Positions 1,789 through 57,111 of a stretch of DNA of 64,000 nucleotides are shown piece by piece. The stretch comes from Escherichia phage UE-S1: the sequence record ON568341.1. One strand, given 5' to 3'. Every line of letters begins with the position of its first letter. Positions within the stretch are counted from its first letter, which is position 1. The notes beneath the pieces were generated by a model that saw nothing but the letters and a program-made list of their open reading frames with translations, had not been told where the DNA came from and searched no databases. A program made the translations under genes and the position numbers.

Positions 1789-1795
1789 AGAAAAG

Positions 1796-1819
1796 GGTTG
1801 ACTTTGGTCAGCCCTTTTT
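1796..1819 (+). terminator. intrinsic terminator hairpin (overlaps promoter -35)
   Basis: GGGTTGAC-tttg-GTCAGCCC stem followed by TTTTT. Confidence 0.55.
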
Positions 1820-1827
1820 GTTATAAT
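1798..1827 (+). promoter_or_regulatory. sigma70-like promoter embedded in terminator
   Basis: TTGACT(1798-1803), 18 nt spacer, TATAAT(1822-1827); upstream of denV. Confidence 0.45.
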
Positions 1828-3071: not shown

Positions 3072-3078
3072 CAAAAAA

Positions 3079-3104
3079 GGGTTGACTTTAGTCAGCCCTT
3101 TTTG
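3079..3104 (+). terminator. intrinsic terminator hairpin with embedded promoter
   Basis: GGGTTGAC-ttta-GTCAGCCC + TTTTT; TTGACT(3082-3087) and TATAAT(3106-3111) overlap. Confidence 0.55.
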
Positions 3105-3139
3105 CTATAATCATTTCATCAACTGATGAGGATAACGAA

Positions 3140-11953: not shown

Positions 11954-12024
11954 AATTCCCTCCTTTATTTGTTATACTATATTTAATACAAAAAGAAAAG
12001 CCAGTACTCAGTACTGGCATAATG
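11954..12024 (-). promoter_or_regulatory. intergenic cassette: terminator hairpin + promoter + SD
   Basis: GCCAGTACTGAGTACTGGC hairpin; GTATTAAATATAGTATAACAAATAAAGGAGGG. Confidence 0.5.
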
Positions 12025-13167: not shown

Positions 13168-13240
13168 AATTCCCTCCCTTATTCATTATAATATATTTAA
13201 TACAAAAAAGAAAAGCCAGTACTTGAGTACTGGCATTATG
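13168..13240 (-). promoter_or_regulatory. intergenic cassette: terminator hairpin + promoter + SD
   Basis: GCCAGTACTTGAGTACTGGC(13215-13234); GTATTAAATATATTATAATGAATAAGGGAGG. Confidence 0.5.
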
Positions 13241-14350: not shown

Positions 14351-14425
14351 AACTAAAATCTCCATATAATAATTATAATGTATTTACAAAAAAATACCAG
14401 CACATATTTCAGTACTGGTATAATG
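14351..14425 (-). promoter_or_regulatory. intergenic cassette: terminator hairpin + promoter + SD
   Basis: CCAGTACTGAAATATGTGCTGG hairpin; TGTAAATACATTATAAT...GGAG. Confidence 0.45.
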
Positions 14426-15607: not shown

Positions 15608-15680
15608 AATAAAATCTCCGTAATTAAATTATATAGTATTTACAAAAAATACCAGTACATATTTCAGTACTGACCTATTA
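15608..15680 (-). promoter_or_regulatory. intergenic cassette: terminator hairpin + promoter + SD
   Basis: CAGTACTGAAATATGTACTGG hairpin; TGTAAATACTATATAAT...GGAG. Confidence 0.45.
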
Positions 15681-16802
15681 TTAAAAGGGCAACGGTAACT
15701 CAGTAAAAGTACTTACGTCCGGTAAACCATACATTAAATTAGCATCACCACAGTAATACCACTTCGTAGAATCATGTACCACCGATAAACGCTGTGCACA
15801 TAACACTTCCTGTATGTCATTAAACACCATCGGGACTAACTCATATGTATCTGCAAATGAAGATTCACTACCACTCGCATGAAAAGTATTTGTCCCAGCA
15901 TAAAATAACTGATTAGTGTTCTTACCCACAGCAAATGTTATCAAAACCCCATCATTCTCCCATAAAGAAGAAAACTTATCAACACTACCAGAAAGCTCTG
16001 TGTAAGTACTCGTAATGGCACTCGCCGCCGCCGCATTACCCATCTGTTTATTCAAGTTCTGTCCAGCAATAAAATATCTCGTTCGTGCACTAGAATCAGT
16101 ATATAATAACCCAGTGTTCGTAGTCATCATTCCAATGTCCTTAATCGTCATATCAGTCTGTGAATAACTTAGATACGAAGTTAAATTAACATTATTACCC
16201 AACGAACCGTTAGAACTCATGCCACAACGATGTAATATACCACTTGTATCAACGTAGATAGTACTAACTAAACTCGTATACAACTCTTGTACATTATTCG
16301 CAATAAACACAGCAGTCGCCTTATTACTAACCCCACCAAATGATAGGTTATTATCAAATCCCTTAGCGTATAATTGATTATTAGTAGTCAATAATCCAAT
16401 CGTGTAATAAGACATTTTCATATCCCTTACTGTACTCAAATCTACTGCCCCAAATTGATACGTAACATCTGTCCATTTGAAAATCTGTGCACTACCAACA
16501 CCACCCGTTTCAAACCATTTGTCACCACAGTACAATATGCGATTATCCTTAGTAAAGATAACTGTTAACAATCCACTACCACACGCAAACTTTACATCAC
16601 TTCTAACCTTCGTCCAATCAAGTACATAGGTAGTGGTGTTATTACCTATACCTAACTTGCCATAACGGTTATAACCACGCACCCATAAATCACCACTCTT
16701 AGTAATTAATAGTAATGCGTCTCCTGTACTTATTATTCGAAATCCCGAACTAGGATCAGGGGCAATATTCCCGTACTTAACCATTCTCCCAAAAGGTAAC
16801 AT
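15681..16802 (-). CDS. RCC1-like beta-propeller protein with MLPFGRM tag (paralog 2)
   Basis: N-term MLPFGRMVKYGNI; YNRYGKLGIGNNT, MSSNGSLGNN repeats. Confidence 0.7.
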   Translation of the reverse strand: MLPFGRMVKYGNIAPDPSSGFRIISTGDALLLITKSGDLWVRGYNRYGKLGIGNNTTTYVLDWTKVRSDVKFACGSGLLTVIFTKDNRILYCGDKWFETGGVGSAQIFKWTDVTYQFGAVDLSTVRDMKMSYYTIGLLTTNNQLYAKGFDNNLSFGGVSNKATAVFIANNVQELYTSLVSTIYVDTSGILHRCGMSSNGSLGNNVNLTSYLSYSQTDMTIKDIGMMTTNTGLLYTDSSARTRYFIAGQNLNKQMGNAAAASAITSTYTELSGSVDKFSSLWENDGVLITFAVGKNTNQLFYAGTNTFHASGSESSFADTYELVPMVFNDIQEVLCAQRLSVVHDSTKWYYCGDANLMYGLPDVSTFTELPLPF

Positions 16803-16875
16803 ATTTTCCTCCTTTATTCATTATACTATATTTAATACAAAAAGAAATGCCAGTATCAAGTACTGGCATATTAAT
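16803..16875 (-). promoter_or_regulatory. intergenic cassette: terminator hairpin + promoter + SD
   Basis: GCCAGTACTTGATACTGGC hairpin; GTATTAAATATAGTATAATGAATAAAGGAGG. Confidence 0.5.
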
Positions 16876-18024
16876 TCATTGTATAAATGACATATCTACT
16901 TCTGTATAATTAAGAACGTTCTGTCCAGAAATACCACCCATTACTACTATTGCAAGGCCACAATAATATAATTTTCCAGTATCCGTAAGTATAAGTGATC
17001 CAGATGGACTGCGTACCAAATCACACGAACTATTAAAAGAAGTATAAGAAGGAGTATAGGAGTACTGATTATTATTATTACCAACACCTAATTGCCCAAA
17101 CCCATTCGATCCAGAAGCATATAGAACTTCATCTGCTTTGACAATATGTGATGCCATGTTACCAACACAAGTATATAGAGTATAAACTCCTGAACTCAAT
17201 AATGTCGGAGTTTTATATTGTATATCTGTAGATGTAGAAGTACCACCTGTACCAAATTCGTTCCCATATTGTGCACCGAACTGTTTGCCACAAGCGTACA
17301 AATTATTATCCGATTTGATAAAAAATGTACTCTGATAACTTACATTAAAATCTATAACATCCGAAGAAATCATCGTCACCCCAGTAATAGAAGTTTGATT
17401 ACCCGTGCCCAACTGGTAGTAATAGTTAAAACCACAACCCCATAAAGTATTATCTTCTCGCAAATAAATGTTACCAACTGCCTTTTTAACCGAAGTTATA
17501 GTATCTACTCTTTTGAATGTGTTAAAAGAATTAATGTTTGTACCATCACCAAATGATGATATGTTCGATATATTGTTAACTCCACAACAATACAATGTAC
17601 CATCTTTTGTTATCAAATTCACCTTCATATCATAAAAACTACTCATGTATTTTATATCAGAAACATTAACACCACTTGATGTTATCCACGTAGTACAGTC
17701 CGTCCACAAAGTTTTTCTATCAGTTACACCAGTGAATGCCTTCGTGTTACCAGTGATAAAAACTTTTCCAGTACCTTTCTCTTCATACAATTGACAATCA
17801 CTACTGTTATCTTCCAATAGAACTCGTTTAACATTCTCCGCACAAAGAATAAATTTACTCGATGCTACACCTGTACCAGTACCCCAATTCGTCGCAGAAG
17901 ATGCATACAACTTATCAGTATAAGTATCATGAAGATACATAGAATCACTGGAATATATTTTAAAACGCCCTTCTTTCTCAGGTATAATATTCCCGTACTT
18001 AACCATTCTCCCAAAAGGTAACAT
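16876..18024 (-). CDS. RCC1-like beta-propeller protein with MLPFGRM tag (paralog 1)
   Basis: N-term MLPFGRMVKYGNI; GSNGFGQLGVGNNN, FNYYYQLGTGNQT repeats. Confidence 0.7.
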   Translation of the reverse strand: MLPFGRMVKYGNIIPEKEGRFKIYSSDSMYLHDTYTDKLYASSATNWGTGTGVASSKFILCAENVKRVLLEDNSSDCQLYEEKGTGKVFITGNTKAFTGVTDRKTLWTDCTTWITSSGVNVSDIKYMSSFYDMKVNLITKDGTLYCCGVNNISNISSFGDGTNINSFNTFKRVDTITSVKKAVGNIYLREDNTLWGCGFNYYYQLGTGNQTSITGVTMISSDVIDFNVSYQSTFFIKSDNNLYACGKQFGAQYGNEFGTGGTSTSTDIQYKTPTLLSSGVYTLYTCVGNMASHIVKADEVLYASGSNGFGQLGVGNNNNQYSYTPSYTSFNSSCDLVRSPSGSLILTDTGKLYYCGLAIVVMGGISGQNVLNYTEVDMSFIQ

Positions 18025-18060
18025 ATTCCCTCCTTATTCATTATATCATATTTACCCAAA
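18025..18060 (-). promoter_or_regulatory. promoter + SD of first array gene
   Basis: minus strand GGTAAATATGATATAATGAATAAGGAGGG-ATG. Confidence 0.45.
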
Positions 18061-18065
18061 AAACA

Positions 18066-18094
18066 CTTGACACCCTTTCAGTACTGTTGTACAA
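18066..18094 (+). promoter_or_regulatory. sigma70-like promoter (divergent from array)
   Basis: TTGACA(18066-18071), 17 nt spacer, TACAAT(18089-18094). Confidence 0.5.
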
Positions 18095-21598: not shown

Positions 21599-22700
21599 TT
21601 AAACACATATAGACAGGGGAAGCTCCGTAGTGGAAGCATTATACAGGCTTTAACATATGTTGCATATGTTAAAATTCAGCCTGGACAAATGCGATCACTA
21701 GGATTCTCCCCAGGCTAAACCCCGTAACTCTACAGAGAAGCCAATAGCTTCTCTTTGTCATAGGTAGTCATAAGTAATCATATATAAACATTTAAGTAAT
21801 CATTCATACGCACGGTAGTGATTAGTATTGAGTACTAGAGTACAGGAATGTTCACGTTTAATCAAGAACGTAGCAGTACTGCCCCAAAAGTATTCAGTAC
21901 TGAAGGTGTCGATATCCCACTAAGTAGGCAGAGGAAGTCTGCCGTACTTTGTAGTTTCCAAGCTCCTTTTCCATTTTTCAAATTACATCAAATGTATTCA
22001 AAAGTAATCACGTAATGATTAGTACTGAATTATTACTTTCACCTTAATTCCAAATACTCTTTTACCCTTCGGGGAAAATCCCATTACCCCTTGAGGCTCC
22101 AGCAAAAAGTTGGAAAGTACTCCATCGTAAATCTGGATCGTAAAAATTTTGGAGTACCTATGAAATAAAAGTTGGATCTTCGAAAGTTGAAATTTACGTT
22201 GGGACATATAGGATTGATGGGATATAATGAGTTTTGTAGAGATACAGATTATACGATTTCAGTACTGAATAATGAAAGAAAGCTATTGACTTTATGATTC
22301 AGTACTGTATAATGTTCTATATAGAGAGATGAGTTGCCGCAAACAATTCATTCACTCTACCTCCTGTCGTGAGACAGTACAGAAAAGATAGTTCCTCCTA
22401 TGGGTGGTACATCTTTTTATAACCTCTTTTTTCGTAATATAAACAGTACTGATATTAACAGAATGGTGTCAGTACTGATTTTAATCTAATACAATACACC
22501 CACCAGCTTGTGCTGGTGGATTATCCACTAACAGTATTCAGTACTACATGATAGTCTTCATCCTCCTAGGGTAACATAGTGAGGGCTATTGTGGGAGTAC
22601 TGAATACTCCTTTCACAAGATAGATCTATGGTATAGTACTGACGGATTTTGGGCGTAGTAAGCCTAGGTTAAATTTAGACGTAGAGATGTCTAGACCTCC

Positions 22701-22830
22701 AGATGGTTGGAAGTAAAGATGGCTATCCCTCTAGGCGGCTGGATGGCTAGATTTCTAGATGGCTGTACTGCTAGACGTTTGGACGGCTAAACGGCTAGAT
22801 GGTTACACGTCTGGAAGTATAGACGGCTAA
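22701..22830. repeat. iteron-like direct repeats (AGAYGGCT / AGATGGTT), CTAG-rich
   Basis: About 8 copies in 130 bp: agatggtt, agatggct, ggatggctag, agatggct, gacggcta, acggctagatggtt, gacggcta. Confidence 0.6.
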
Positions 22831-23452
22831 ATCAAAATTTTTATTCTGTTTTTTCCAATAGTTCCCCTACCGCGTGAGGATGTTTTTCCCCGCAGTATCT
22901 GGTGTTAGATTTTTCTGAATCTGGAATCATTATCTAATAAACTGGGGGCAATGTCAACGGCCTGGATGAATATTTTTAAAAAATAATCTAGTACTAAATT
23001 TTGGGCGTAACTATGCACCCGGTGGGCTTGAGTCTTTCTCGACTTGATGAAATAATTATATCAGTACTGGAAAAATAAAGCAATACCATGGAAGCAAAAA
23101 AGTTTTAATTAATTTGCTTGCTATCCTGGGCCGGACTATGGTACTATATTTCAGTACTGAGAAAGTGCGTTTACCTGCTAGGGTGCGGGAGTGTATCCTT
23201 TTTTTATATCTTGAATTTTGGGCGTAATTCCGCACCCTCTGGGGTTTCCGCTTTCTCGCGTCTATGTAGTAATTATACGCTTTTTTAGTACTGAGTCAAT
23301 AGCCAAAAACAAAATAATTGAAAATAATTTAACGCGTTTAAACGGCCTGTAAAGCCCTGAAATGATTAGAATGGTGCAAATGTATAGCTTAGGTGTATTA
23401 ATGCGTTAGAATGCGTCTGAGGCCGTTTTACGTGGTATAGGGATGATTTAGT

Positions 23453-25027: not shown

Positions 25028-25278
25028 TCATATTTTTTGAAAAATTTACAATTGCCGGTATTGACTTATTTTGTCAGTACTGGCATAATGTATTCATTGG
25101 CAGATAAGCCGTAGCCCATAGGGTGCGGGAGTGTATCTATAGAAAAATTAGTTTAGTATAGTTACAATTGTGCACCCGGTGGGTTAGCTGTTGTCATGGG
25201 GTATATTATGCCAGTACTTGATAATGCTGTCAATACTTTTTTTACTATTCAGTACTGAAAACTATTTTTAAAAAGTAC

Positions 25279-25306: not shown

Positions 25307-25400
25307 GTTTTACATCAGGACGGGGAACGAAATAAGTAACCCCGTTAAGTAGTCCAGGAGTAAGACATACGAAAAACTCCCCTGATAAAATAGTTTGACA
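25301..25400. repeat. 100-bp exact repeat (copy 1) carrying structured leader
   Basis: Appears identical by eye to 35214..35313. Confidence 0.7.
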
Positions 25401-26453: not shown

Positions 26454-26714
26454 ATGAGTAAAGTAATTAGCTATACAGCACTAAGCAAGACATTATCTAT
26501 TAGCCAGTGCACCGATGGTTATTGGCTATTTGATGAAACGCGTGGCATGAATTTAGCCATGCGTGCAAAAACTGCTGAGGCGGCGTATCTTGAAGCATTG
26601 GAATACTACCAGGAACGTTTAAAGGAAGTAGAAGAAGATTATAAAAGCCTCAAAGCGAAAGTAGATCATTTCGTCGGTCAATTCATCGAGGAAGACGACG
26701 ACAAACAATATTGA
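26454..26714 (+). CDS. hypothetical early protein (86 aa)
   Basis: ORF with GAGGG SD. Confidence 0.5.
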   Translation: MSKVISYTALSKTLSISQCTDGYWLFDETRGMNLAMRAKTAEAAYLEALEYYQERLKEVEEDYKSLKAKVDHFVGQFIEEDDDKQY

Positions 26715-26722
26715 AAAAGTAC

Positions 26723-26750
26723 TTGCAATTAGTTTTCAGTACTGTATAAT
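26723..26750 (+). promoter_or_regulatory. early sigma70-type promoter
   Basis: TTGCAA(26723-26728), 16 nt spacer, TGTATAAT(26743-26750). Confidence 0.55.
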
Positions 26751-26800
26751 GGTTTACATCAAAGGGAGAAATGGTTCTCCCTGGTAATGAGGAAAATAAA

Positions 26801-27022: not shown

Positions 27023-27190
27023 CAACGCGGGGAGATAATAACTCCCCGTTACTTTTTCAGTACTGAATCATTTAATAGACGGATCTCGGCACCCGGTGGG
27101 TTAGTGACTGTTTCGTCTTGATGTAGTAATTATGCCAGTACTGGATGCACTTGTCAACAACTATTTTTCAAATACTTTTTATTAAAATAC

Positions 27191-28144: not shown

Positions 28145-28166
28145 AGCCCACCTGGTGGGCTTTTTT
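28145..28166 (+). terminator. intrinsic terminator
   Basis: AGCCCACCTGGTGGGCT hairpin + TTTTTT. Confidence 0.6.
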
Positions 28167-28875: not shown

Positions 28876-28902
28876 AGCCCACTTCTTATAGTGGGCTTTT
28901 TT
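28876..28902 (+). terminator. intrinsic terminator
   Basis: AGCCCAC-ttcttata-GTGGGCT hairpin + TTTTTT. Confidence 0.6.
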
Positions 28903-31471: not shown

Positions 31472-31706
31472 AATCATTAGCTTATTATAGTTCGGCCCTG
31501 GTCGGTGCATTGATCGCGGCATTGTTAGTAGCTTATCTATTCTTTATGGTGATTTAAATGAATCCTAACGGTATAATTTACAGTACTCCTAAAACGAAAG
31601 CAGATAAAGCTAAAGCACGTAAAGCGAAAGTAAAGGAATACATCAAGCAAGGCATGACACGAAAGGCGGCGATTCTAAAAGCTAAAAATAAATGAAAAAA
31701 GTGGTT

Positions 31707-31744
31707 GACTTCGGTCAGCCATTTTGCTATTATATAATCATTGA
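31707..31744 (+). terminator. terminator hairpin with embedded promoter (composite element)
   Basis: GTGGTTGACTTCGGTCAGCCA + TTTTGCTATTATATAATC; TTGACT inside stem. Confidence 0.5.
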
Positions 31745-31837
31745 GAGATAGCTCACTAGCCCACGGGGTGCGGGAGTGTATCTATTATATAAGCATTGAG
31801 TACTGAAAACTATTTTAAAAGTATTTGCAGAAAGTAC

Positions 31838-31865
31838 TTGCAAACTATCTCAATTGGCGTATAAT
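31838..31865 (+). promoter_or_regulatory. early sigma70-type promoter
   Basis: TTGCAA(31838-31843), 16 nt spacer, TATAAT(31860-31865). Confidence 0.55.
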
Positions 31866-31916
31866 GTTTTACATCGCAAGGGGAAACGGTTTCCCCTAGT
31901 AATAAGGAATAAAATC

Positions 31917-33196: not shown

Positions 33197-33394
33197 ATGA
33201 TTAGCATGAAATCAGTACAAAAACAAATAGAAACATTATCAAAAATTAAACGTAAACAGTACTCATTAGAATATAATATCAATGGTAACTATCATCTAAT
33301 GAAAGAGAATAATTTTATCGTCATTGATGAATCATTGCAAATTATTAGTATAGTACTGAAAGCATTAATTAATGATAGAAAAAGGTTAAAATAA
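33197..33394 (+). CDS. hypothetical protein (65 aa)
   Basis: ORF; TAATG coupling to zinc-finger gene. Confidence 0.45.
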   Translation: MISMKSVQKQIETLSKIKRKQYSLEYNINGNYHLMKENNFIVIDESLQIISIVLKALINDRKRLK

Positions 33395-34897: not shown

Positions 34898-35057
34898 AAG
34901 AATTCTTATTTGAAGTAGTGTTTCAAGGTGTCGGTAATAACCAACTGATTCGAACAAGTGGTTATAATGTTAACCAGGCATGGAATAACATTAAACAAAT
35001 GTACCCGAACGCTATCACATATCGCAACCCGAAAGAAGTTTAAAAATAATTGAAAAA

Positions 35058-35095
35058 GGGATTGACTCCGGTCAGTCCCTTTGCTATTATATACG
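35058..35095 (+). terminator. terminator hairpin with embedded promoter (composite element)
   Basis: AAAAAGGGATTGACTCCGGTCAGTCCCTTTGCTATTATATA. Confidence 0.55.
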
Positions 35096-35191
35096 CATAG
35101 AAACAAATTAGCCCACCGGGTGCATAAATGTATCTATTGTTTGCTGGTGGCTAGTACTATCAAGTACTGAAAACTATTTTTAAAAAAGTAC

Positions 35192-35219
35192 TTGCAAAGT
35201 ATCACGATAAGCGTATAAT
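35192..35219 (+). promoter_or_regulatory. early promoter (upstream of tandem pair)
   Basis: TTGCAA(35192-35197), 16 nt spacer, TATAAT(35214-35219). Confidence 0.55.
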
Positions 35220-35313
35220 GTTTTACATCAGGACGGGGAACGAAATAAGTAACCCCGTTAAGTAGTCCAGGAGTAAGACATACGAAAAACTCCCCTGATA
35301 AAATAGTTTGACA
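35214..35313. repeat. 100-bp exact repeat (copy 2)
   Basis: Appears identical by eye to 25301..25400. Confidence 0.7.
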
Positions 35314-35335
35314 ATAGAAAGTAAACGAGTATAAT
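35308..35335 (+). promoter_or_regulatory. early promoter (downstream of tandem pair)
   Basis: TTGACA(35308-35313), 16 nt spacer, TATAAT(35330-35335). Confidence 0.5.
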
Positions 35336-35368: not shown

Positions 35369-35644
35369 ATGCGGACTTTACTTACAGCTAACGAAATCGA
35401 GCAAGTACTGACTACTAATCTGGAACAATGGAAACGTGAAGCAGATATCCAGGCGGTTCAATGCCTTAACGATAAGTTAACGCCAGATGACTTAAGCACG
35501 ATTGTTGATCCACAATTTTATGAAGATATTCACGACACGTCTTTAAGCGTCGAGGATGTACTTGATAAGCACTACATTGATACTGATTTACATGTTTACG
35601 GTCGTAAAAACTTTATCACTATTCACGACATTTACAATACTTAA
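35369..35644 (+). CDS. hypothetical early protein (91 aa)
   Basis: ORF after dual promoters; AAGGAAA SD. Confidence 0.55.
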   Translation: MRTLLTANEIEQVLTTNLEQWKREADIQAVQCLNDKLTPDDLSTIVDPQFYEDIHDTSLSVEDVLDKHYIDTDLHVYGRKNFITIHDIYNT

Positions 35645-35731
35645 GTATTGACAAAGTATCTTAGTACTGTATAATAGTTTACATCAAGCGAGGGGAATGG
35701 TTCCCCTCCTAACAAAGAGAGAGAAATAAAA

Positions 35732-36055
35732 ATGGCTATGATCCTTACCCAGAAAGTAGAACTGAAAATTGTAACCTCCTTTGACATTAAAGTTAATCGG
35801 TGGACTGATAGCCACGGCAATACTTACCACTCCTGCTACGTGTCCGCATTGATTGGTGATCGCTGGGAAGACCTGGGACACGAAACCTTTACATACGGTT
35901 ACGGCACACAAGGCGAGTACACGGGTTTAGAAATCATTAAGGAAACTGTAATAGGTTTCAACCCGAAAGAGAAAGTACTACACAGAATTGAGAAAGAGAT
36001 CAACAAAGAAATTACAGTTCGCTACTACGATGTAAAACGTAAGAAAGACATGTAA
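35732..36055 (+). CDS. hypothetical early protein (107 aa)
   Basis: AGAGAGAGAAA SD after hairpin; paralog of 29894..30238. Confidence 0.55.
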   Translation: MAMILTQKVELKIVTSFDIKVNRWTDSHGNTYHSCYVSALIGDRWEDLGHETFTYGYGTQGEYTGLEIIKETVIGFNPKEKVLHRIEKEINKEITVRYYDVKRKKDM

Positions 36056-38050: not shown

Positions 38051-38067
38051 AAAAGATTAAAAAAGGG

Positions 38068-38105
38068 ATTGACTCCGGTCAGTCCCTTTGCTATTATATA
38101 TCCAT
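38068..38105 (+). terminator. terminator hairpin with embedded promoter (composite element)
   Basis: AAAAAAGGGATTGACTCCGGTCAGTCCCTTTGCTATTATATA. Confidence 0.55.
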
Positions 38106-38191
38106 TGAGAGATAACTCACTGACCCATAGGGTGCGGAAGTGTATCTATTATATAAGTATTCAGTACTGAAAACTATTTTTAAAAAAGTAC

Positions 38192-38219
38192 TTGCAAACT
38201 ATCTCAATGAGCGTATAAT
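38192..38219 (+). promoter_or_regulatory. early sigma70-type promoter
   Basis: TTGCAA(38192-38197), 16 nt spacer, TATAAT(38214-38219). Confidence 0.55.
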
Positions 38220-38274
38220 GTTTTATATCGAGAGGGGGAAATGGTTCTCCCTAGTACTAAAAGGAATCAAGACG

Positions 38275-38496
38275 ATGACTACTATGACCTGCGTTCACGC
38301 TTCAAATCTTCTGAATGATGCAGCATTTAAAGCAGGTGAAGAATATCAATGCTATCGGGATGAAAATAAAAAAGTTTTTGTAGTTGATAATAATGGTTTC
38401 CATATTGAATTACAATCCGGCTTCACTGGTTTAAATGGTAAATCAGTATGGGGCGTACAGGATGATAAAGGTACATATCATTTTAAACGTAATTAA
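38275..38496 (+). CDS. hypothetical early protein (73 aa)
   Basis: ATG 38275 after AAAAGGAAT SD and leader hairpin GGGGGAAATGGTTCTCCC. Confidence 0.5.
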   Translation: MTTMTCVHASNLLNDAAFKAGEEYQCYRDENKKVFVVDNNGFHIELQSGFTGLNGKSVWGVQDDKGTYHFKRN

Positions 38497-38577
38497 GTAT
38501 TGACAAAGTATATCAGTACTGTATAATAGTTTACATCAAGGGGAGAATGGTTCTCCCCACTAAAAGGAAACAAAATT

Positions 38578-38850
38578 ATGTCCAGCTACTCCGCTACTAT
38601 GATCATTAAAGATATGAACGGTAATCCTACTTCTGCTGGTGGATCATTTGGAAACATTAATTTAGATGGTCGGTTATCCATGCAATCAGCCATCGATGCA
38701 GCGAAAGAAGTTTTTAAGAATGAATGTACTGTTAGTAAGCTGGATTATATGGGTTTCGCTATCGAGAAAACTACTCGTTTTGTGAACTACAAAAATCCAC
38801 TGATGATTGATACTAACCTGAAAGCTAACGAAGTGGGGTACTTATTATGA
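38578..38850 (+). CDS. hypothetical early protein (90 aa)
   Basis: AAAAGGAAA SD after hairpin; promoter TTGACA..TGTATAAT. Confidence 0.55.
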   Translation: MSSYSATMIIKDMNGNPTSAGGSFGNINLDGRLSMQSAIDAAKEVFKNECTVSKLDYMGFAIEKTTRFVNYKNPLMIDTNLKANEVGYLL

Positions 38851-40305: not shown

Positions 40306-40322
40306 CAAAAAAGAATAAAAAA

Positions 40323-40360
40323 AGGGATTGACTCCGGTCAGTCCCTTTGCTATTATATAC
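40323..40360 (+). terminator. terminator hairpin with embedded promoter (composite element)
   Basis: AAAAAAAGGGATTGACTCCGGTCAGTCCCTTTGCTATTATATA. Confidence 0.55.
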
Positions 40361-40550
40361 GCATAGACAAAAACTAGCCCACAGGGTGCATAGGTGTATC
40401 CAAAATATATAGTTAATAACGGTGAGTAACTATCTGCTGGTGGAACTAAAACTATTAATAAAAAAGTATTGACAAAGTATATCAGTACTGCAATAATGTA
40501 TCTCGTAGGGCGGCAATGGTGCGACGGCCCACAAAGTTAGGAGATTCACC

Positions 40551-41871: not shown

Positions 41872-42099
41872 ATGATTGATAATAATTTTAAGGGAGTCCC
41901 TGTGCGTATTTTAACTCAAGCAGAACACCACGAAAGACTTATCAATAACATGGCTATGATAATGTATAAGTCCCATGACCGTGGTATTGCATATAAGCGT
42001 GAATTAGTACTGGAACTATTCATTGGGACTAACTATCAGGAAAGGTATGTCAACGATTGGATTTGGTATTTAATTGAAGATATAACGAGTAAACTATGA
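41872..42099 (+). CDS. LGTNYQE-family small protein (first of tandem array)
   Basis: Motif FIGTNYQERYV; ATG is only 2 nt after TATAAA, so start may be leaderless or internal. Confidence 0.45.
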   Translation: MIDNNFKGVPVRILTQAEHHERLINNMAMIMYKSHDRGIAYKRELVLELFIGTNYQERYVNDWIWYLIEDITSKL

Positions 42100-42290
42100 T
42101 AATTTTAACTAAAGAAGAATATCAATCACTGTTACGTAAAAACTACGTAAAGATTTACAATACAGCCACACACGTAGAACGAATGGAGTTATACCTTTTG
42201 ATTACATTGGGAACTAACTATCAGGAAAGATGGGTGATTCAATATATGGATACATTGAAAAATAAAATATTGTCCACGAGGAAACAATGA
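42096..42290 (+). CDS. LGTNYQE-family small protein
   Basis: ATGA overlap; motif LGTNYQERWV. Confidence 0.55.
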   Translation: MIILTKEEYQSLLRKNYVKIYNTATHVERMELYLLITLGTNYQERWVIQYMDTLKNKILSTRKQ

Positions 42291-42496
42291 AAATCATAAC
42301 ACACAGACAAGCATTGAGTCGTATGGTGAAGTATCTTGAATTGATGGTGTCTATACCAAAGAGCTTACCAAAAACTGAAAGAGAGATACATTCAGCAGAG
42401 TATCGTCTATTAGCAGTACTGAATACTAACTACCAAGATGAATATGTTGACGATTGGATTCTATCATTAATAGAAGATATAAAGAGTAAACTATGA
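42287..42496 (+). CDS. LGTNYQE-family small protein
   Basis: ATGA overlap; motif LNTNYQDEYV. Confidence 0.55.
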   Translation: MKIITHRQALSRMVKYLELMVSIPKSLPKTEREIHSAEYRLLAVLNTNYQDEYVDDWILSLIEDIKSKL

Positions 42497-42708
42497 ATAT
42501 CATTGCGAACTCACATCAATATACCGAACGCGTCGCTGCCAGACAACTTGAAATCCTCATAATATACGAAGAAACTTCTGATTTAAACTTAGCTGAGGTA
42601 TTGGAAAATGAAATACTTTTGGGTGCATTCTTGGGAACAGACTATCAGGAGTATTATGAGGAAAAGTATTTGTCATCTCTTGAGAAATACATCAGGAGTA
42701 AACAATGA
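42493..42708 (+). CDS. LGTNYQE-family small protein
   Basis: ATGA overlap; motif LGTDYQEYYE. Confidence 0.55.
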   Translation: MNIIANSHQYTERVAARQLEILIIYEETSDLNLAEVLENEILLGAFLGTDYQEYYEEKYLSSLEKYIRSKQ

Positions 42709-42932
42709 AACATTTAAGTATAAGAGAGAAGAATAAAATTATCATCAATGTCATGAACCGATATAATCAACTATTGGATAGAGAATACTCAAGTTCATAT
42801 GTGCACAGGATAAACACTACGGATGTACGCATGATGGCTGTACTGGGGACAAACTATCAGGAAAGTTATGTTCATGAGCACATAGTTGCACTCACTAATT
42901 ACATAATGGACAAATGTAATGAACATCATTAA
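42705..42932 (+). CDS. LGTNYQE-family small protein
   Basis: ATGA overlap; motif LGTNYQESYV. Confidence 0.55.
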   Translation: MKHLSIREKNKIIINVMNRYNQLLDREYSSSYVHRINTTDVRMMAVLGTNYQESYVHEHIVALTNYIMDKCNEHH

Positions 42933-43143
42933 TAACTTTGAATACGAGGCCCGTGTTAAGAGTGCCAGAGAAAAAGAGAACACCATTTACTTCACTATGA
43001 TGTACTTACAATGGACTGAAATTGAAGAAAAGGTTGCTGAAGTATGGATGTTGGAATTCATGGGGACGCAGTATCAGAATATGTTTGCGGGTGAGTATAT
43101 CAATGTTCTTATGAAACAAATAGAAAGGAAGGAAAAGAACTAA
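42919..43143 (+). CDS. LGTNYQE-family small protein
   Basis: motif MGTQYQNMFA. Confidence 0.55.
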   Translation: MNIINNFEYEARVKSAREKENTIYFTMMYLQWTEIEEKVAEVWMLEFMGTQYQNMFAGEYINVLMKQIERKEKN

Positions 43144-43179
43144 TGGAGGGATGCTGTACTTTATTTGAACTTTTATATA

Positions 43180-43228
43180 TTCATGAACACATAGTTGCCC
43201 TCACAAATCTAATAAAGGATAAATGTAA
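43180..43228 (+). pseudogene. remnant 3' fragment of an LGTNYQE-family gene
   Basis: ~85% identical by eye to 3' end of 42705..42932 (..HEHIVALTN..DKC..); no start codon. Confidence 0.45.
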
Positions 43229-43486
43229 ATGAAACACTTGACTGATGATGAACATGAAACTATAATTCGTAAACTAACCCCCATCACAAGGATAGTATAC
43301 GGTGATCCCAGCCTTACATGGAACCAAATGCAAGCTAAAGTTAATGAGCTATGGTTGCTGTACTTTATGGGGACTCAATATCAAGATAAGTTTTGCACAG
43401 AATATATCGAACAATTAACGAATGTTATACAGGATAAACTAAATGAACGAATTGTGGAAAAATATGAAAACTTTATCAAGCATTGA
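43229..43486 (+). CDS. LGTNYQE-family small protein
   Basis: motif MGTQYQDKFC; AAAGGA SD. Confidence 0.55.
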   Translation: MKHLTDDEHETIIRKLTPITRIVYGDPSLTWNQMQAKVNELWLLYFMGTQYQDKFCTEYIEQLTNVIQDKLNERIVEKYENFIKH

Positions 43487-43715
43487 GTATCAGACTGCCC
43501 TCTTCTCTCTTCTAAATACCCTCCGCACGAACAATAAACTTTATAATTCCCGTGAAGCTGATATTGTCAACGCTGATGTATATCTTAATAAATTCATTGG
43601 GACTAACTATCAAGAACTGTTTGTTTTACGATATATCTCTGCACTAAGAAACGAAATATCAGATAAAACCCGACAAGCCAGAAGAGAATGGAAGAAACAA
43701 TGCGACACAGACTAA
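43443..43715 (+). CDS. LGTNYQE-family small protein
   Basis: motif IGTNYQELFV; overlaps previous gene end. Confidence 0.5.
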   Translation: MNELWKNMKTLSSIEYQTALFSLLNTLRTNNKLYNSREADIVNADVYLNKFIGTNYQELFVLRYISALRNEISDKTRQARREWKKQCDTD

Positions 43716-43951
43716 ATCACAAAATGTATTGTAAACTATTACAGGAACTGACACAGAAACACTATAATACAATATCTTCCATATTACCCTATGATATCAT
43801 GCGTTTAATTCATAGTGAGGCAGAGATGTTAGTACTGATGACCGGTACTGATAAAATAGCAATCACCAGATCGATAGAGCAATATATTGATGCACACTGT
43901 CAATGTATTAGAACTGAGATATGGAGGCGAGTAAATGAAAGTACTGAATGA
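43688..43951 (+). CDS. LGTNYQE-family small protein (divergent)
   Basis: motif MTGTDKIAITR. Confidence 0.45.
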   Translation: MEETMRHRLNHKMYCKLLQELTQKHYNTISSILPYDIMRLIHSEAEMLVLMTGTDKIAITRSIEQYIDAHCQCIRTEIWRRVNESTE

Positions 43952-44150
43952 GTATCAGTATCATTGGAGGTTACAAACTATAAGAGGGAAAGTTGTTAGT
44001 ATTTCTTTAGACAAGTCTATTGCACAAGAGGACAAATGTGTTATAATAGCTGAAATGAAGTTGGGTGTATTTGTAGGAACAAACTATCAAAACATCTACA
44101 CTGACGTATTATTAAGTGCCTTACGCAACAAGGTGTTATCCAGAGAATGA
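43935..44150 (+). CDS. LGTNYQE-family small protein
   Basis: motif VGTNYQNIYT. Confidence 0.55.
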   Translation: MKVLNEYQYHWRLQTIRGKVVSISLDKSIAQEDKCVIIAEMKLGVFVGTNYQNIYTDVLLSALRNKVLSRE

Positions 44151-44365
44151 GAAAATTAATAGGTTACGAATATGTTAAGCTTCTGAAAACCTGTAGTATT
44201 AGCAGGGTAAAGATTCAATCTGATAAGAGTATTCCTGTTGAACTAAAGTACGCAATGATGGCTGAACTTTATGTAGGTGCACTATTGGGGACAAACTATC
44301 AACAAATGTATGTAGACCTATGGGTTGACGCTCTACAGAAAGAGGTCCAAAGTAAATGCAAATGA
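44147..44365 (+). CDS. LGTNYQE-family small protein
   Basis: ATGA overlap; motif LGTNYQQMYV. Confidence 0.55.
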   Translation: MRKLIGYEYVKLLKTCSISRVKIQSDKSIPVELKYAMMAELYVGALLGTNYQQMYVDLWVDALQKEVQSKCK

Positions 44366-44577
44366 TTCATTTATCTTACTATGAATATCAAAAACGTTTA
44401 AATGCATCAAGAGGTATAAGGATTCAAATCTTCAATAACAAAAGATTGAAATCTGAAGCCAAAAAAATCAAAATCATAGAAGCAGAGTTGTGCAACTTTC
44501 TAGGGACGAACTATCAGGAAGGTAAGATAAAAAACTATCTTAGAGAACTAATGATTAGTATCAAGAGTAAATGTTAG
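44356..44577 (+). CDS. LGTNYQE-family small protein
   Basis: motif LGTNYQEGKI. Confidence 0.55.
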   Translation: MQMIHLSYYEYQKRLNASRGIRIQIFNNKRLKSEAKKIKIIEAELCNFLGTNYQEGKIKNYLRELMISIKSKC

Positions 44578-44581
44578 GCAG

Positions 44582-44839
44582 ATGTACATGAAAATGATTA
44601 AATTATCTCAAGCAAAATATAAAGAACGCCTGGAAAAAATTACACCTAAACTTAATGAAATCCATCACGGAGAAGTCATTAAACACGGAAATAAGATGAT
44701 TATGAAACTTGAGTTAAAGGTGGGTGCATTCATAGGAACAAACTATCAGGAGTATTATGTAGATGAATACATAATCGCACTTAAGAGATACATTGGAAGA
44801 AAACTATATCTACAAACTAAAGAATTGTATTGCAAATAA
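44582..44839 (+). CDS. LGTNYQE-family small protein
   Basis: motif IGTNYQEYYV; true start may be ATG 44588. Confidence 0.5.
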   Translation: MYMKMIKLSQAKYKERLEKITPKLNEIHHGEVIKHGNKMIMKLELKVGAFIGTNYQEYYVDEYIIALKRYIGRKLYLQTKELYCK

Positions 44840-45120
44840 ATGTGAGGTTGATGAACATGCAAATGATTAATTTAAGTAAAGATGAATATACCGAGCGTAT
44901 GACAAAAATTACGCACAAACGTAATACAATCTATCACAACCCAGAAATTCAACACAGTAAGAAAATGATTATGATGCGTGAGTTAAAGATGGGTGTATTC
45001 TTAGGAACAAACTATCAAGATACAGAAGTAAATCGCTTAATCGCGGAGTTACTACTGGAAATCAGAGGTAAGCTGTACTTTCATCAAATGACCCAACCAC
45101 TGAGGTGTACTAAGAAATGA
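44830..45120 (+). CDS. LGTNYQE-family small protein
   Basis: motif LGTNYQDTEV; true start may be an internal ATG near 44857. Confidence 0.5.
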   Translation: MQINVRLMNMQMINLSKDEYTERMTKITHKRNTIYHNPEIQHSKKMIMMRELKMGVFLGTNYQDTEVNRLIAELLLEIRGKLYFHQMTQPLRCTKK

Positions 45121-45332
45121 TCAACATCACATTGCAAGAAAGATTCATCCGAATCAACTATGCAATTACCAAATTAGATGCTACTATAGGATTCCAAAGT
45201 CTACCGTTCCAAACAAGAATGATATTAGAGTGCGAAGCTAAATTGGGTGTACTGTTAGGAACGCAACACCAACAACGATATGTGGAAATCTGGATTGATC
45301 TTTTAACCCAAAATGTACATGAGAAAATGTAA
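45117..45332 (+). CDS. LGTNYQE-family small protein
   Basis: ATGA overlap; motif LGTQHQQRYV. Confidence 0.55.
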   Translation: MINITLQERFIRINYAITKLDATIGFQSLPFQTRMILECEAKLGVLLGTQHQQRYVEIWIDLLTQNVHEKM

Positions 45333-45569
45333 ATGAAAAATGAAATGATATACTTAACGAATGAAGAGTTTCAAGAGAAGATGTTAAAAATCTATGATAA
45401 TACTCTTGAGTACGTTCCAAATCAATCAATATATGAAGTGTCTGCGAATGTATTATTTCAGAAGCTACCATACGTTCTTGGTACTGATAAACAAGAATTT
45501 ATGGTCAAAAATATGATTGAACATCTTATGATGAGTATTAAGGAAAAAGTAAATGCAAAAACAAAATAA
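45333..45569 (+). CDS. LGTNYQE-family small protein
   Basis: TAAATG junction; motif LGTDKQEFMV. Confidence 0.55.
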   Translation: MKNEMIYLTNEEFQEKMLKIYDNTLEYVPNQSIYEVSANVLFQKLPYVLGTDKQEFMVKNMIEHLMMSIKEKVNAKTK

Positions 45570-45816
45570 AATGATATACTTAACACCTGCTGAGTTAACA
45601 GAAAGACTAGTTAAATCCAGAAGATATACAAATCAACTTCCTCACAACCCAAATCAAAGCCCAGCGGAAAGGAGTGCAGAAGTTTTATTCCAATCACTAC
45701 CATACCTTCTTGGAACTAATAGACAAGAGTATCATATCGAACGTATAATTAAATATCTTAAAATTACTATTAAGGAAAAGATACATGCTCAAGAATTTAA
45801 AAATCCTAACAGCTAA
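45553..45816 (+). CDS. LGTNYQE-family small protein
   Basis: motif LGTNRQEYHI. Confidence 0.55.
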   Translation: MQKQNKMIYLTPAELTERLVKSRRYTNQLPHNPNQSPAERSAEVLFQSLPYLLGTNRQEYHIERIIKYLKITIKEKIHAQEFKNPNS

Positions 45817-46027
45817 TGAATATCATAAGATTGTAATGACGACTAATAGTGCAATTTCTAAAAAATCAAATCCCAAATACATACTGGAACACACATTTGA
45901 AGAACGACAATTAACTTTAGTTGAAGCAAAACTTCTTGCACTCCTAGGAACAAACTATCAAGAAGAGTACGTTAGAAAACTAATATACCTTTTAACTAAA
46001 CATATTAGAAAAAAGAAAAACGCATGA
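45785..46027 (+). CDS. LGTNYQE-family small protein
   Basis: motif LGTNYQEEYV. Confidence 0.55.
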   Translation: MLKNLKILTANEYHKIVMTTNSAISKKSNPKYILEHTFEERQLTLVEAKLLALLGTNYQEEYVRKLIYLLTKHIRKKKNA

Positions 46028-46254
46028 AACACTTGACAGATGATGAACATGGGCTTATAGTAATGGATGTAATCAACATCGAATACAAAAAGTTGATACG
46101 CTACCGTTGTTATGAAGATAAGCAACTCGTTCTAGAAGAACAGAAGTTGTTTCGACTCTTAAACACAAACTACCAAGCACAATACGAAGAATCGTATATG
46201 TACCTTTTGGCGAGGAAAGCAAAAAGAGATTATGAAAATTTTAAGCGAAGGTGA
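46024..46254 (+). CDS. LGTNYQE-family small protein
   Basis: ATGA overlap; motif LNTNYQAQYE. Confidence 0.55.
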   Translation: MKHLTDDEHGLIVMDVINIEYKKLIRYRCYEDKQLVLEEQKLFRLLNTNYQAQYEESYMYLLARKAKRDYENFKRR

Positions 46255-46447
46255 TGCAGTAATATTACTTATCGAGAATTCACGTAAATTCGTAAACATA
46301 ACACTGTCTGATATAGATGAAGATGACAAAGAAGTACTGAGAGCAGATTTAAGAGTACTGTTACATCTCGGAACAAACCTACAAGAAAGATATGTAGAGT
46401 TCTACATTGATGAACTTAAAGAATCAGTACTGAAAAGATGCAAATGA
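46232..46447 (+). CDS. LGTNYQE-family small protein
   Basis: motif LGTNLQERYV. Confidence 0.55.
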   Translation: MKILSEGDAVILLIENSRKFVNITLSDIDEDDKEVLRADLRVLLHLGTNLQERYVEFYIDELKESVLKRCK

Positions 46448-46665
46448 AAATCATTACTGACGAAGAATACCTAACAATCATAAATGGACTGTTTTTGAAG
46501 CTATATGCTATTAACATATCAAACCTACCAGATATGGATAAAATTATTAAGAGAAATGAAATCTATGTTCTAGCTACCCTGGGAACTAACTATCAAGAAT
46601 ACGATATTAATGATTATATTAAGACACTTAAACGAGCGATTGAACTAAAATGCCAAAACCACTAG
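46438..46665 (+). CDS. LGTNYQE-family small protein
   Basis: motif LGTNYQEYDI. Confidence 0.55.
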   Translation: MQMKIITDEEYLTIINGLFLKLYAINISNLPDMDKIIKRNEIYVLATLGTNYQEYDINDYIKTLKRAIELKCQNH

Positions 46666-46865
46666 GAACAGCAGAATACATTGAACTCATGGGATTACAC
46701 TTCTCATCCTTTCAGAAACTTATGCGAGAATCAAAGAATGATTTAGAATATACCATCAGAGGTTCAGATTTAAGAATGCTTCTCACCCTAGACACAGATT
46801 CCCAAGAGCGATTTGTCAATGAGCACATTAGAGCACTTTTAATGGAAATTCAAAGTAAACTATGA
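46650..46865 (+). CDS. LGTNYQE-family small protein (divergent)
   Basis: motif LDTDSQERFV. Confidence 0.5.
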   Translation: MPKPLGTAEYIELMGLHFSSFQKLMRESKNDLEYTIRGSDLRMLLTLDTDSQERFVNEHIRALLMEIQSKL

Positions 46866-47077
46866 AGGAAATATCAAACCAAGAGTACTTGGCACTATTC
46901 AGAAAGAATAATCATAAATTTATGGCACTTGATACAAGAACTGATATAGGGGAACTTGAAAAAAATCTTTTGCGTTCAGAGATGATAGTACTGACACTTT
47001 TAGGAACACAGCATCAAGAGAGAACTGTTAATTCATATATTGAGATTCTTACGAAGCTTATACAGGAAAAACTATGA
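46862..47077 (+). CDS. LGTNYQE-family small protein
   Basis: ATGA overlap; motif LGTQHQERTV. Confidence 0.55.
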   Translation: MKEISNQEYLALFRKNNHKFMALDTRTDIGELEKNLLRSEMIVLTLLGTQHQERTVNSYIEILTKLIQEKL

Positions 47078-47295
47078 GAATCATAACACAAACAGACATA
47101 TTTAAGTTAGCAAGAGAACATACATCTGAAATTGATGCTATAGTATCAAAAAGTTACAATGACCCTTATACACAAGATGTACACTACAATGAATTATGGG
47201 TGTATATACTTTTAGGTACAAATTATCAAGAGCAAGCAGTACAGAAGTATTTGACAGCCTTAAGTACTGCTATTGCTAATGGAATAGGTGTTTAA
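47074..47295 (+). CDS. LGTNYQE-family small protein
   Basis: ATGA overlap; motif LGTNYQEQAV. Confidence 0.55.
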   Translation: MRIITQTDIFKLAREHTSEIDAIVSKSYNDPYTQDVHYNELWVYILLGTNYQEQAVQKYLTALSTAIANGIGV

Positions 47296-57110: not shown

Positions 57111-57111
57111 A

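Follow-up and report, generated by a model that had tools for sequence, protein, structure and literature searches.

The closest described counterparts of the element treated here are the Promoter early Stem-Loop elements (PeSLs) of T4-like phages, known from RB49/phi1, T4/PST and KVP40/nt-1 (Arbiol et al. 2010, PMC2839356; Comeau et al. 2014, PMC4122927). A PeSL combines a sigma70 early promoter with a stem-loop terminator or attenuator, and both promoter and terminator activity have been shown with reporters; PeSLs begin at the upstream stop codon, lie in A/T-rich DNA, cluster among ORFans and have been proposed to mediate modular shuffling (PMC2839356; PMC4122927). Five subclasses are distinguished by the position of the stem-loop, one of them overlapping the -35 (PMC2839356). 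Here, we examined a 64,000-nucleotide (nt) stretch of Escherichia phage UE-S1 (record ON568341.1; hereafter the window), in which a preliminary description had noted a recurrent composite, namely a terminator-like hairpin with a promoter -35 inside its stem, followed at several copies by a conserved box. The best overall explanation, and in our view the probable one, is a bifunctional terminator/attenuator-promoter cassette coupled to a conserved leader RNA module.

The composite shares much with PeSLs. All six copies start just past a stop codon in A/T-rich DNA, and each has a near-consensus sigma70 promoter with the stem lying over the -35, as in the described subclass. The nt-1 stems (A3-4G3-loop-C3T3-4) resemble the AAAGGG...CCCTTT found here, many copies sit in a plastic region of small ORFans (four in 31-41 kb), and indels between relatives fall at repeated promoter cassettes, here of another family. 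The differences concern lineage, which is that of the Asteriusvirus/Rak2-like jumbo phages and not the Straboviridae, and downstream architecture: four of the six copies lead into an RNA module of about 50 nt and one or two further promoters, whereas a Shine-Dalgarno (SD) sequence and start codon close the cassette only at 1789 and 3073. The four composites with a module also lack breakpoints relative to phages CRJP21 and G17. PeSL activity has been shown experimentally, and that of the composite is predicted from sequence; on these features it is best described as the PeSL design in a different phage lineage, and hence not as a new design.

The window belongs to an Asteriusvirus jumbo coliphage (121Q/PBECO4-like, "Rak2-like"). 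Megablast of 30-42 kb matched 116 phage records, with the top matches, at 92-96% identity, being the Escherichia phages CRJP21, BAU.Micro_ELP-22, slurp01, phAPEC6, G17, 121Q and PBECO4 (Asteriusvirus). The counterpart DNA in CRJP21 is the initial 21 kb of its record, and a homologous element lies within the annotated direct terminal repeat of vB_Ec-M-J, CBB, Muenster and fENko-Kae01; we therefore take 22-42 kb to be an early, terminal-repeat region. Its genes, on the plus strand and 50-200 codons long, are nearly all annotated as "hypothetical", and we read the region as one that depends on the host RNA polymerase. The authors of the CBB genome paper predicted 74 terminators and, clustered in regions of this kind, RpoD-like promoters with UP elements; their paper contains no description of the hairpin-promoter element treated here (PMC5259590).

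A promoter embedded in a hairpin

A degenerate 26-mer for the composite matched the plus strand six times (1789, 3073, 31696, 35053, 38060 and 40319), as against 0 matches in 100 shuffles, which bears out the six copies listed before at coordinates 4-11 nt away. Three matches were exact and three had 3 mismatches, the 26-nt cores of 35053, 38060 and 40319 being identical. Every hairpin starts 1-16 nt past the stop codon of the upstream open reading frame (ORF), in an intergenic, A/T-rich stretch, and follows one layout: A3-5, a 9-bp core stem, a tetraloop (TCCG, TTCG, TTTG or TTTA), the 3' arm and T3-5. Read as sense-strand RNA, this gives a hairpin of 9-12 bp followed by a U-rich stretch; the 35053 copy folds at -19.5 kcal/mol (z -5.6). 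The -35 hexamer TTGACT sits in the 5' arm, so that the 3' arm and the T-run form the spacer, and the -10 follows after 17 nt (TATTAT, four copies) or 18 nt (TATAAT, two copies). Each -10 hexamer is preceded by TGn, formed by the final T and G of the run, making it an extended -10. The promoter previously proposed is accordingly present in all six copies. The T-run is less uniform, with TTTTT at 1789 and 3073, TTTT at 31696 and TTT at the other three; of the claimed terminator hairpin plus T-run, the hairpin stands, and the run is merely TTT at 35053, 38060 and 40319.

Taken separately, both halves look like standard E. coli signals. The G+C-rich stem, the tetraloop (C-UUCG-G at 31696) and the U-rich tail are those of an intrinsic terminator, and TTGACT, a spacing of 17-18 nt, TGnTATTAT/TATAAT and a start A 7 nt downstream of the -10 are those of an extended -10 sigma70 promoter. 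Unlike in E. coli, however, the two signals share one 40-bp stretch, and the U-tract is limited to 3-5 U because the run must enter the -10 region. A promoter/terminator scan of 30.5-41.5 kb (11 kb) called all four composites there as both, with a promoter match of 10/12 plus TG, and these composites account for four of the five plus-strand terminator-like sites in that interval.

The four composites within 31-41 kb (31696, 35053, 38060 and 40319) lie among hypothetical genes of 50-200 aa and carry the box and module downstream, without an SD and start codon directly behind. The copies at 1789 and 3073 lack the box and have a ribosome-binding site (RBS) and gene directly downstream, so the box follows four copies of six and not the other two. 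The 1789 copy starts 1 nt past the stop codon of ORF 1501-1788 and is followed by an RBS and gene 1856-2371. The genes behind the two box-less copies (1856-2371 and 3140-3913) lie outside the terminal-repeat early region, and their products, read by eye, are a possible T4 endonuclease V-like protein and a P-loop (GKGGVGKT) ATPase.

The composite is conserved among relatives. A 104-nt composite is present in 64 phage records and is 74-85% identical in Klebsiella (RaK2, K64-1), Pectobacterium (CBB), Yersinia (fHe-Yen9-03), Salmonella, Cronobacter, Serratia and Erwinia phages, the identity being 74-80% when only the Klebsiella, Pectobacterium, Yersinia and Salmonella phages are considered. The G17 record annotates the hairpin homologues as ARNOLD terminators (-13.0 kcal/mol) and the Yersinia phage fHe-Yen9-03 record annotates a homologue with -35 and -10 signals; the authors of the two records thus marked one half each, independently. 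Scanning about 450 kb of related phage DNA for TTGAC paired within a hairpin of at least -9 kcal/mol, with a -10 at 16-18 nt, yielded 83 distinct hairpin-embedded TTGAC promoters, of which 34 tetraloop members were aligned on their stems (alignment A4) and their pairs counted. Overall, 96.8% of cells were paired. The outer four pairs showed double-sided changes (GC, AU, UA, CG; for example GGGATTGAC/GTCAGTCCC, AGTACTTGAC/GTTGAGTACT and GGAGTTGAC/GTTGACTCC), and the pairs facing the invariant TTGAC changed on the 3' side only, from G-C to G-U or from U-G to U-A. The covariation score was 0.39, compared with 0.22 in shuffles (0/500 as high) and at most 0.14 in slid controls.

Mean hairpin energy was -14.5 kcal/mol for sense RNA and -8.9 kcal/mol for antisense, the sense fold being stronger in 33 of 34 sequences because of the wobble pairs. 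Such an asymmetry is expected of a terminator read from the coding strand but not of a DNA cruciform. When the window was scanned without bias for hairpins followed by T, TTGAC lay in the 5' arm at 7 of the 17 plus-strand sites. Taken together, the cassette reads as an RNA hairpin under sense-strand selection fused to a near-consensus sigma70 promoter. The suggestion that termination and re-initiation are fused within about 40 bp finds support in the sequence, the covariation and the independent annotation of homologues, as a design already known.

The leader module and its promoters

The box is the most constant part of a module of about 50 nt. Transcription is predicted to start at the A of CAT, 7 nt past the -10, and the first hairpin (P1) consequently begins 2-4 nt from the 5' end. 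From the starting CAU, the module runs through P1 (3-5 bp, purine-rich loop such as AGAUAA, GCGAAA or AGAACA), a gap of 3-4 nt, a second hairpin (P2, RCCC-AYA-GGGU), GC, a purine-rich pentamer, U(G/C/A)(U/C)(A/G)UC and UAU, with an invariant core summarised as RCCC-AYA-GGGUGC-N5-UGUAUC. The conservation described earlier needs qualification: a 25-mer consensus of the box fits 25113, 31758 and 38122 only (at most 3 mismatches), while the boxes at 35110 and 40376 keep the first half (AGCCCAYNGGGTGC) and TGTATC alone (GCATAAATGTATC, GCATAGGTGTATC). As to the further sites that had been listed, 23165 corresponds to a degenerate copy at 23176-23203, 25125 is a real box (25113) behind a different hairpin-embedded promoter (TTGACT at 25061), and 31765 is the box of the 31696 copy and not an extra site.

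We built a covariance model (R1) from 12 module copies. In the window, it returned nine copies, all in 22-41 kb (6 on the plus and 3 on the minus strand) and none elsewhere; a tenth unit, on the minus strand at about 23221-23278, was seen by eye and missed by R1. Applied to 398 kb of DNA from related phages, the model found 76 copies, 68 of them distinct, and it found 10-11 copies in the initial 24 kb of CRJP21. An exact-pattern scan of IMG/VR and metagenomes recovered loci from RaK2, GAP32, CBB, 121Q and uncultured phages of about 350 kb; with CCCNNNGGGTGCNNNNNTGTATC, nearly all metagenome matches were due to chance, and at least 5 of 120 loci were clearly genuine family members.

P1 behaves as an RNA helix. 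It is paired in 97.4% of cases, all four of its pairs show double changes (e.g., AU 18, GC 16, CG 14), its covariation score is 0.33 against 0.12 in shuffles (0/500 as high) and at most 0.04 in slid controls, and the column pairs with the highest mutual information are exactly the P1 pairs. About 20 of the 68 copies lack P1, among them 35095 and 40361. Only the closing pair of P2 varies, 34 sequences having A-U and 33 having G-U; this switch is neutral in RNA and not in a DNA palindrome.

The module is tied to promoters rather than to hairpins. A sigma70 match of at least 9/12 occurs at a fixed upstream distance in 68 of 71 distinct units, compared with 2.5% of random positions, and every true box copy lies about 21-25 nt 3' of a sigma70-type start site, whether or not the promoter is hairpin-embedded and on both strands. 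The box is therefore coupled to sigma70 promoters generally and is not an appendage of the terminator, as had been assumed. Units occur in three contexts. Roughly 62%, including the four behind the composites, have a terminator-embedded promoter upstream and a UP-like stretch with a second promoter downstream. About nine have a plain promoter and continue into AU-rich sequence, an invariant AGUACUG and their own intrinsic terminator; this context indicates that the module may in such cases be a self-contained RNA gene of about 100 nt. Others are arranged as convergent pairs in which each unit has a promoter of its own and the two boxes are complementary. The apparent long hairpin at 25094-25200 arises because the minus-strand box of one such pair (25155..25210) is complementary to the plus-strand box, and that at 23150-23265 because of a second pair; reading either (z ~-5) as a single structured RNA was rejected, these being convergent units tail to tail with separate promoters.

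GC skew and gene orientation switch at ~21900-23300; in the first 1.3 kb to the right of this point, two units on the minus strand and a weak one on the plus strand are arranged head to head and tail to tail. Position 22000 of the window aligns with position 78 of the CRJP21 record, and the point may match the left genome end of that record.

Searches for known counterparts of the module were negative. None of 4227 Rfam families reached the gathering score anywhere in the window, and nothing relevant appeared at E<=5 in 22.8-25.5 and 31.6-40.7 kb; ARAGORN found no tRNA or tmRNA at the elements. By blastn, the module had no match in 5,426 E. coli genomes or in PLSDB plasmids, and host mimicry was rejected. 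We found no description of the module in the literature on Asteriusvirus/RaK2/GAP32 promoters, small RNAs or CAGTACTG.

Several other interpretations were considered and rejected. Translation of a mini-ORF (NTG-TAT-C, with GGGUG as SD) is contradicted by the ~20% of copies that have UCUGUC or UCCGUC in place of the start codon and by peptides of 3-21 codons that are unconserved. A third helix involving GC-N5-UGUAUC finds no partner by mutual information, and an AGAUA/UAUCU pairing shows no covariation. A cis-regulatory leader of one gene family was discarded because the genes behind the four composite units are mutually unrelated.

We also note that two plus-strand terminator-like hairpins (28145-28161 and 28876-28897) have the stem AGCCCAC/GTGGGCT followed by T6, AGCCCAC being the first half of the box. 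Identical 80-nt elements lie at 25313-25392 and 35226-35305, just 3' of promoters of the second type (Table 1); they fold into a closed two-hairpin structure (-21 kcal/mol, z -3.3), and the 35226-35305 copy, between two promoters, looks non-coding.

Our analysis indicates that the box belongs to a module that is transcribed, coupled to promoters and provided with a covarying 5' helix. We regard this module as a candidate for a new RNA family, either promoter-proximal RNAs or small RNAs, so far confined to Rak2-like jumbo phages. Of the roles first suggested for the box, a small RNA would fit best, given the fixed-distance promoter, the covarying 5' hairpin and, in some units, the own terminator; a protein-binding site is possible at the RNA level.

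Table 1. Positions of composites, module units, promoters and associated motifs in the window
Feature	Position	Strand	Details
Composite, copy under study	35053..35090	+	A-tract; begins ~10 nt past upstream stop codon
Hairpin of 35053 copy	35055-35082	+	core stem GGGATTGAC / GTCAGTCCC, loop TCCG
Promoter of 35053 copy (predicted)	35062-35067 (-35); 35085-35090 (-10)	+	TTGACT; 17-nt spacer; TGc; TATTAT
Composite copy	31696..31733	+	hairpin 31698-31725 (GTGGTTGAC-TTCG-GTCAGCCA); -35 31705-31710; -10 TATTAT 31728-31733
Composite copy	38060..38097	+	hairpin 38062-38089; -35 38069-38074; -10 38092-38097
Composite copy	40319..40356	+	hairpin 40321-40348; -35 40328-40333; -10 40351-40356
Composite copy without box	1789..1827	+	hairpin 1792-1817; -35 1798-1803; 18-nt spacer; -10 TATAAT 1822-1827
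Composite copy without box	3073..3111	+	hairpin 3077-3100; -35 3082-3087; -10 TATAAT 3106-3111; gene 3140-3913 next
Unit launched (predicted) by 35053 embedded promoter	35095..35140	+	R1 37 bits; start CAT; no 5' hairpin
Box of 35095 unit		+	UUAGCCC-ACC-GGGUGC-AUAAA-UGUAUC-UAU (module alignment A3)
Unit	31738..31788	+	R1 71 bits; 5' hairpin UGAG-AGAUAG-CUCA, then UAGCCC-ACG-GGGUGC-GGGAG-UGUAUC
Unit	38102..38152	+	R1 73.8 bits; 5' hairpin, then GACCC-AUA-GGGUGC-GGAAG-UGUAUC
Unit without 5' hairpin	40361..40406	+	R1 39.6 bits; box AGCCC-ACA-GGGUGC-AUAGG-UGUAUC
Second promoter, downstream of 35053 box	35192..35219	+	AAAAAAGTACTTGCAA-16-TATAAT; A/T-rich UP-like stretch 35168-35190; family of at least 22 copies
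Third promoter	35308-35335		before gene starting 35369
Stand-alone unit	27029..27157	-	promoter TTGACA-17-CATAAT (27157 down to 27123); unit 27121-27072; R1 E 0.013
3' part of stand-alone unit	27047-27029 (terminator)	-	AGUACUG; own terminator GGGGAGTTATTATCTCCCC; antisense to all neighbouring genes
Different hairpin-embedded promoter with unit	25053..25143	+	CCGGTATTGAC...GTCAGTACTGG; -35 25061-25066; -10 CATAAT 25084-25089; unit 25094-25143
Convergent unit	25155..25210 (25199 down to 25155)	-	own -10 CATAAT within 25195-25210
Diverged unit	23009..23083	-	promoter TTGCTT-17-TATAAT (23083 down to 23046)
RNA of diverged unit	23009..23083	-	5' hairpin AGUC-GAGAAA-GACU; box AAGCCCACCGGGUGC-AUAGU-UACGCC
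Second convergent pair	23151..23278	both	weak + unit 23151-23203; - unit, -10 23262-23278, box 23221-23244 (read from sequence)
Second-cassette examples	26709-26759, 31824-31874, 35178-35228, 38178-38228		
CAGTACTG examples	22444-22477, 25075-25082, 26737-26744, 38162-38169		

Proposed mechanism and alternatives

We propose that polymerase arriving from upstream genes would be released, or attenuated where only UUU is present, in the U-stretch that doubles as the promoter spacer, and that a new transcript would then start at the A of CAT. Release followed by restart would thereby give each block of small early genes a defined, insulated input. P1 would probably stabilise the new transcript, the invariant, non-covarying core would serve as a putative sequence-specific binding site on the RNA, and the second, UP-element promoter after the module would drive the next gene. 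The 5'-terminal stabiliser hairpins of bacterial and phage mRNAs (e.g., the ompA 5' untranslated region) protect from 5'-end-dependent decay by a similar geometry, with P1 starting as close to the predicted 5' end as noted above; this likeness accounts for the first helix only and not for the invariant box.

There are about ten modules per genome, in the putatively first-entering terminal repeat and behind near-consensus sigma70 promoters. Our tentative proposal, possible rather than probable, is that the module is a sequence-specific protein-binding RNA made in high copy and very early, which some host or phage protein would meet as a ligand or decoy; preferring protein binding over a base-pairing regulator or a DNA site is a committed guess. 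With somewhat greater reserve, we suggest that it might be a new multi-copy, very early phage RNA family that titrates or redirects a protein such as a nuclease, an RNA chaperone or RNA polymerase, the embedded promoter recycling hairpin-released polymerase into that RNA. RNA-seq of the distant relative PA5oct revealed that its terminal repeat gives rise to non-coding RNAs at high levels (Lood et al. 2020, PMC7318152), a parallel in that non-coding transcripts come from the terminal repeat or early region of a jumbo phage dependent on host RNA polymerase (PMC7318152). The PA5oct RNAs are, however, 236-451 nt long and single-copy, and they show no homology to the module in sequence or structure (best R1 score, 6.9 bits).

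Several points weigh against this account. Termination, initiation and a discrete small RNA are all things that we infer. The 34 hairpins of A4 were picked by fold energy and by the presence of TTGAC, so both their pairing percentage and the invariance of TTGAC are inflated, although the double-sided changes in the outer stem and the strand asymmetry are free of that bias. Because only UUU follows the stem in three copies, those composites may attenuate rather than terminate. The terminator is absent after the module in the four composite copies, where the module may be just the long leader of the downstream mRNA. Module alignment A3 was fitted to the model structure, and the invariant parts of the box (CCC/GGG, GGGUGC, UGUAUC) do not covary; the RNA reading of those parts consequently depends only on the R-U closing pair and on the coupling to promoters.

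The main alternative is that the box acts in cis on the polymerase that has just started, as a pause or processive antitermination signal altering its behaviour at later terminators, with lambda nut (boxA/boxB), rrn boxB-boxA-boxC, HK022 put and ops/RfaH as models; we consider it unlikely. The constant position of the box 21-25 nt past the start site, always in the same orientation, would suit such a signal, and lambda nut and rrn boxB-boxA-boxC are likewise promoter-proximal and set a variable hairpin with a purine-rich loop beside an invariant single-stranded motif, the covarying hairpin preceding the invariant sequence as in rrn boxB-then-boxA. Yet the module contains no boxA consensus, nothing similar to CGCUCUUA / UGCUCUUUAACA being present in the A3 consensus. 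Moreover, many modules are directly followed by their own terminator or are convergent, with about nine units carrying a strong terminator of their own within 17-23 nt, some of them facing a convergent gene, an arrangement hard to reconcile with constitutive antitermination, and the next composite hairpin is still terminator-like for the same transcripts. For pausing in particular, GG-N8-TG fits the elemental pause (G-11 G-10 ... Y-1 G+1) with the hairpin end 8-9 nt upstream, but the presumed +1 G varies (UGUAUC / UCUGUC / UAUGUC) in ~20% of copies. Some copies also resemble the 12-nt ops/RfaH site (GCGGTAGTGTA vs GGCGGTAGCGTG), but the match reaches 8-9 of 11 positions in a few copies and the ops-like pentamer is unconserved (AUAAA in many, GAAAA and others). 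Both the consensus-pause and the ops resemblance were rejected as unconserved across copies.

The other two alternatives are less likely than a pause or antitermination signal. One, which we find improbable, makes the box a double-stranded DNA operator, at which a phage or host protein bound at +20 to +45 would block or tune early promoters, for instance during shut-off. The 24-bp core is invariant without covariation, ACCC-N3-GGGT is a short inverted repeat, the coupling of the box to promoters is tight, and the palindromic 8-mer CAGTACTG near boxes and in promoters suggests a DNA-binding regulator. The position facing the invariant T is nevertheless A in 34 sequences and G in 33, which breaks DNA symmetry and is fine for an RNA pair; in addition, the adjoining 5' hairpin covaries as RNA, the orientation to the promoter is strictly fixed, and stand-alone copies with their own terminator resemble RNA genes. 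The octamer itself occurs 68 times in the window against 0.87 expected (~80-fold enriched). In many early promoters it immediately precedes the -10 or overlies the -35, and it is found 8-14 nt 3' of nearly every box; it also makes both arms of hairpins, including terminator-like stems in the array of minus-strand genes at 6-17 kb. The octamer could be the DNA site of a regulator or a motif that generally forms RNA stems.

The last alternative concerns recombination, and the region does carry traces of it. A second early promoter cassette, AAAAAGTACTTGCAA-N16-(G)TATAATGTTTTACAT, is present in at least 22 copies between 23566 and 40927 and continues into a 5' G+C hairpin (GGGGAGAAATGGTTCTCCCC), an RBS and a start codon. 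Aligning 22-43 kb to CRJP21 and G17 by blastn gave indel or replacement junctions at 26149/26703, 29098, 29671, 31076/31232, 33669/34090, 34339, 35642-35738 and 38495-38590; by our reading of the ends of the high-scoring segment pairs, the second cassette accounts for about 11 of the 16 junctions, which fall inside its copies. None falls at the composites 31696, 35053, 38060 and 40319, all of which are inside alignments colinear with CRJP21 and G17. PeSL-like shuffling is therefore visible in the region and not at the composite. In CRJP21 (and 121Q), there is an additional cassette of some 320 bp that contains a promoter of its own and a unit (CRJP21 10780-11100 vs window 33383-33394, where the two flanking genes overlap at TAATG), which we take to be an insertion or a microhomology-mediated unit deletion because TTAAAATAA direct repeats flank it. 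That the composite with its box is mainly a recombination linker shuffling gene cassettes between related phages, as proposed for PeSLs, is thus very unlikely: the composite is a repeated block (93-240 bp, 77-90% identity among copies) in a region with a mosaic pattern among close relatives, one cassette carrying a unit is an indel with TTAAAATAA at its flanks and most breakpoints fall in repeated promoter cassettes, but these belong to the other promoter family (AAAAAGTACTTGCAA-N16-TATAAT plus 5' hairpin), the four composites are colinear, and covariation and strand asymmetry point to selection on an RNA hairpin and not on sequence identity only. The recombination module boundary suggested earlier for the box thus finds no support, the breakpoints relative to CRJP21 and G17 lying at the other, commoner cassettes.

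Other repeats and the significance for Rak2-like phages

Further repeats occur outside the region of the composites. In the minus-strand region 8592-18068, nine copies of a 79-105 nt repeat (families D8 and D11) are spaced by ~1.2 kb and look like a tandem paralogous gene array with conserved upstream regions. Thirteen copies of a 32-50 nt repeat (GGAACAAACTATCAAGAA core), at a spacing of ~212 bp and multiples, occupy 42000-47250 and resemble a series of small paralogous ORFs. A 144-nt repeat occurs five times at 56836-58907, at intervals of ~450-480 bp; the sole ARAGORN call in the window, an 85-nt "tRNA-Cys (aca)" at 58070-58154, falls between them and may be a false positive.

For the biology of these phages, our results suggest that the PeSL design is the standard build of early transcription units in Rak2-like jumbo phages too. 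Such phages, with genomes of ~350 kb, are increasingly isolated for therapy, and their early regions are nearly all "hypothetical"; the fused element provides a rule by which their early transcription units can be annotated from sequence. In at least five named phage genera, no other non-coding sequence of the early regions is as well conserved as the module. Should the module prove to be an early RNA that binds a protein, it would add a new component to host takeover or to regulation, and the whole would offer a compact, portable part for synthetic biology, combining an insulator, a strong promoter and a stabilising leader.

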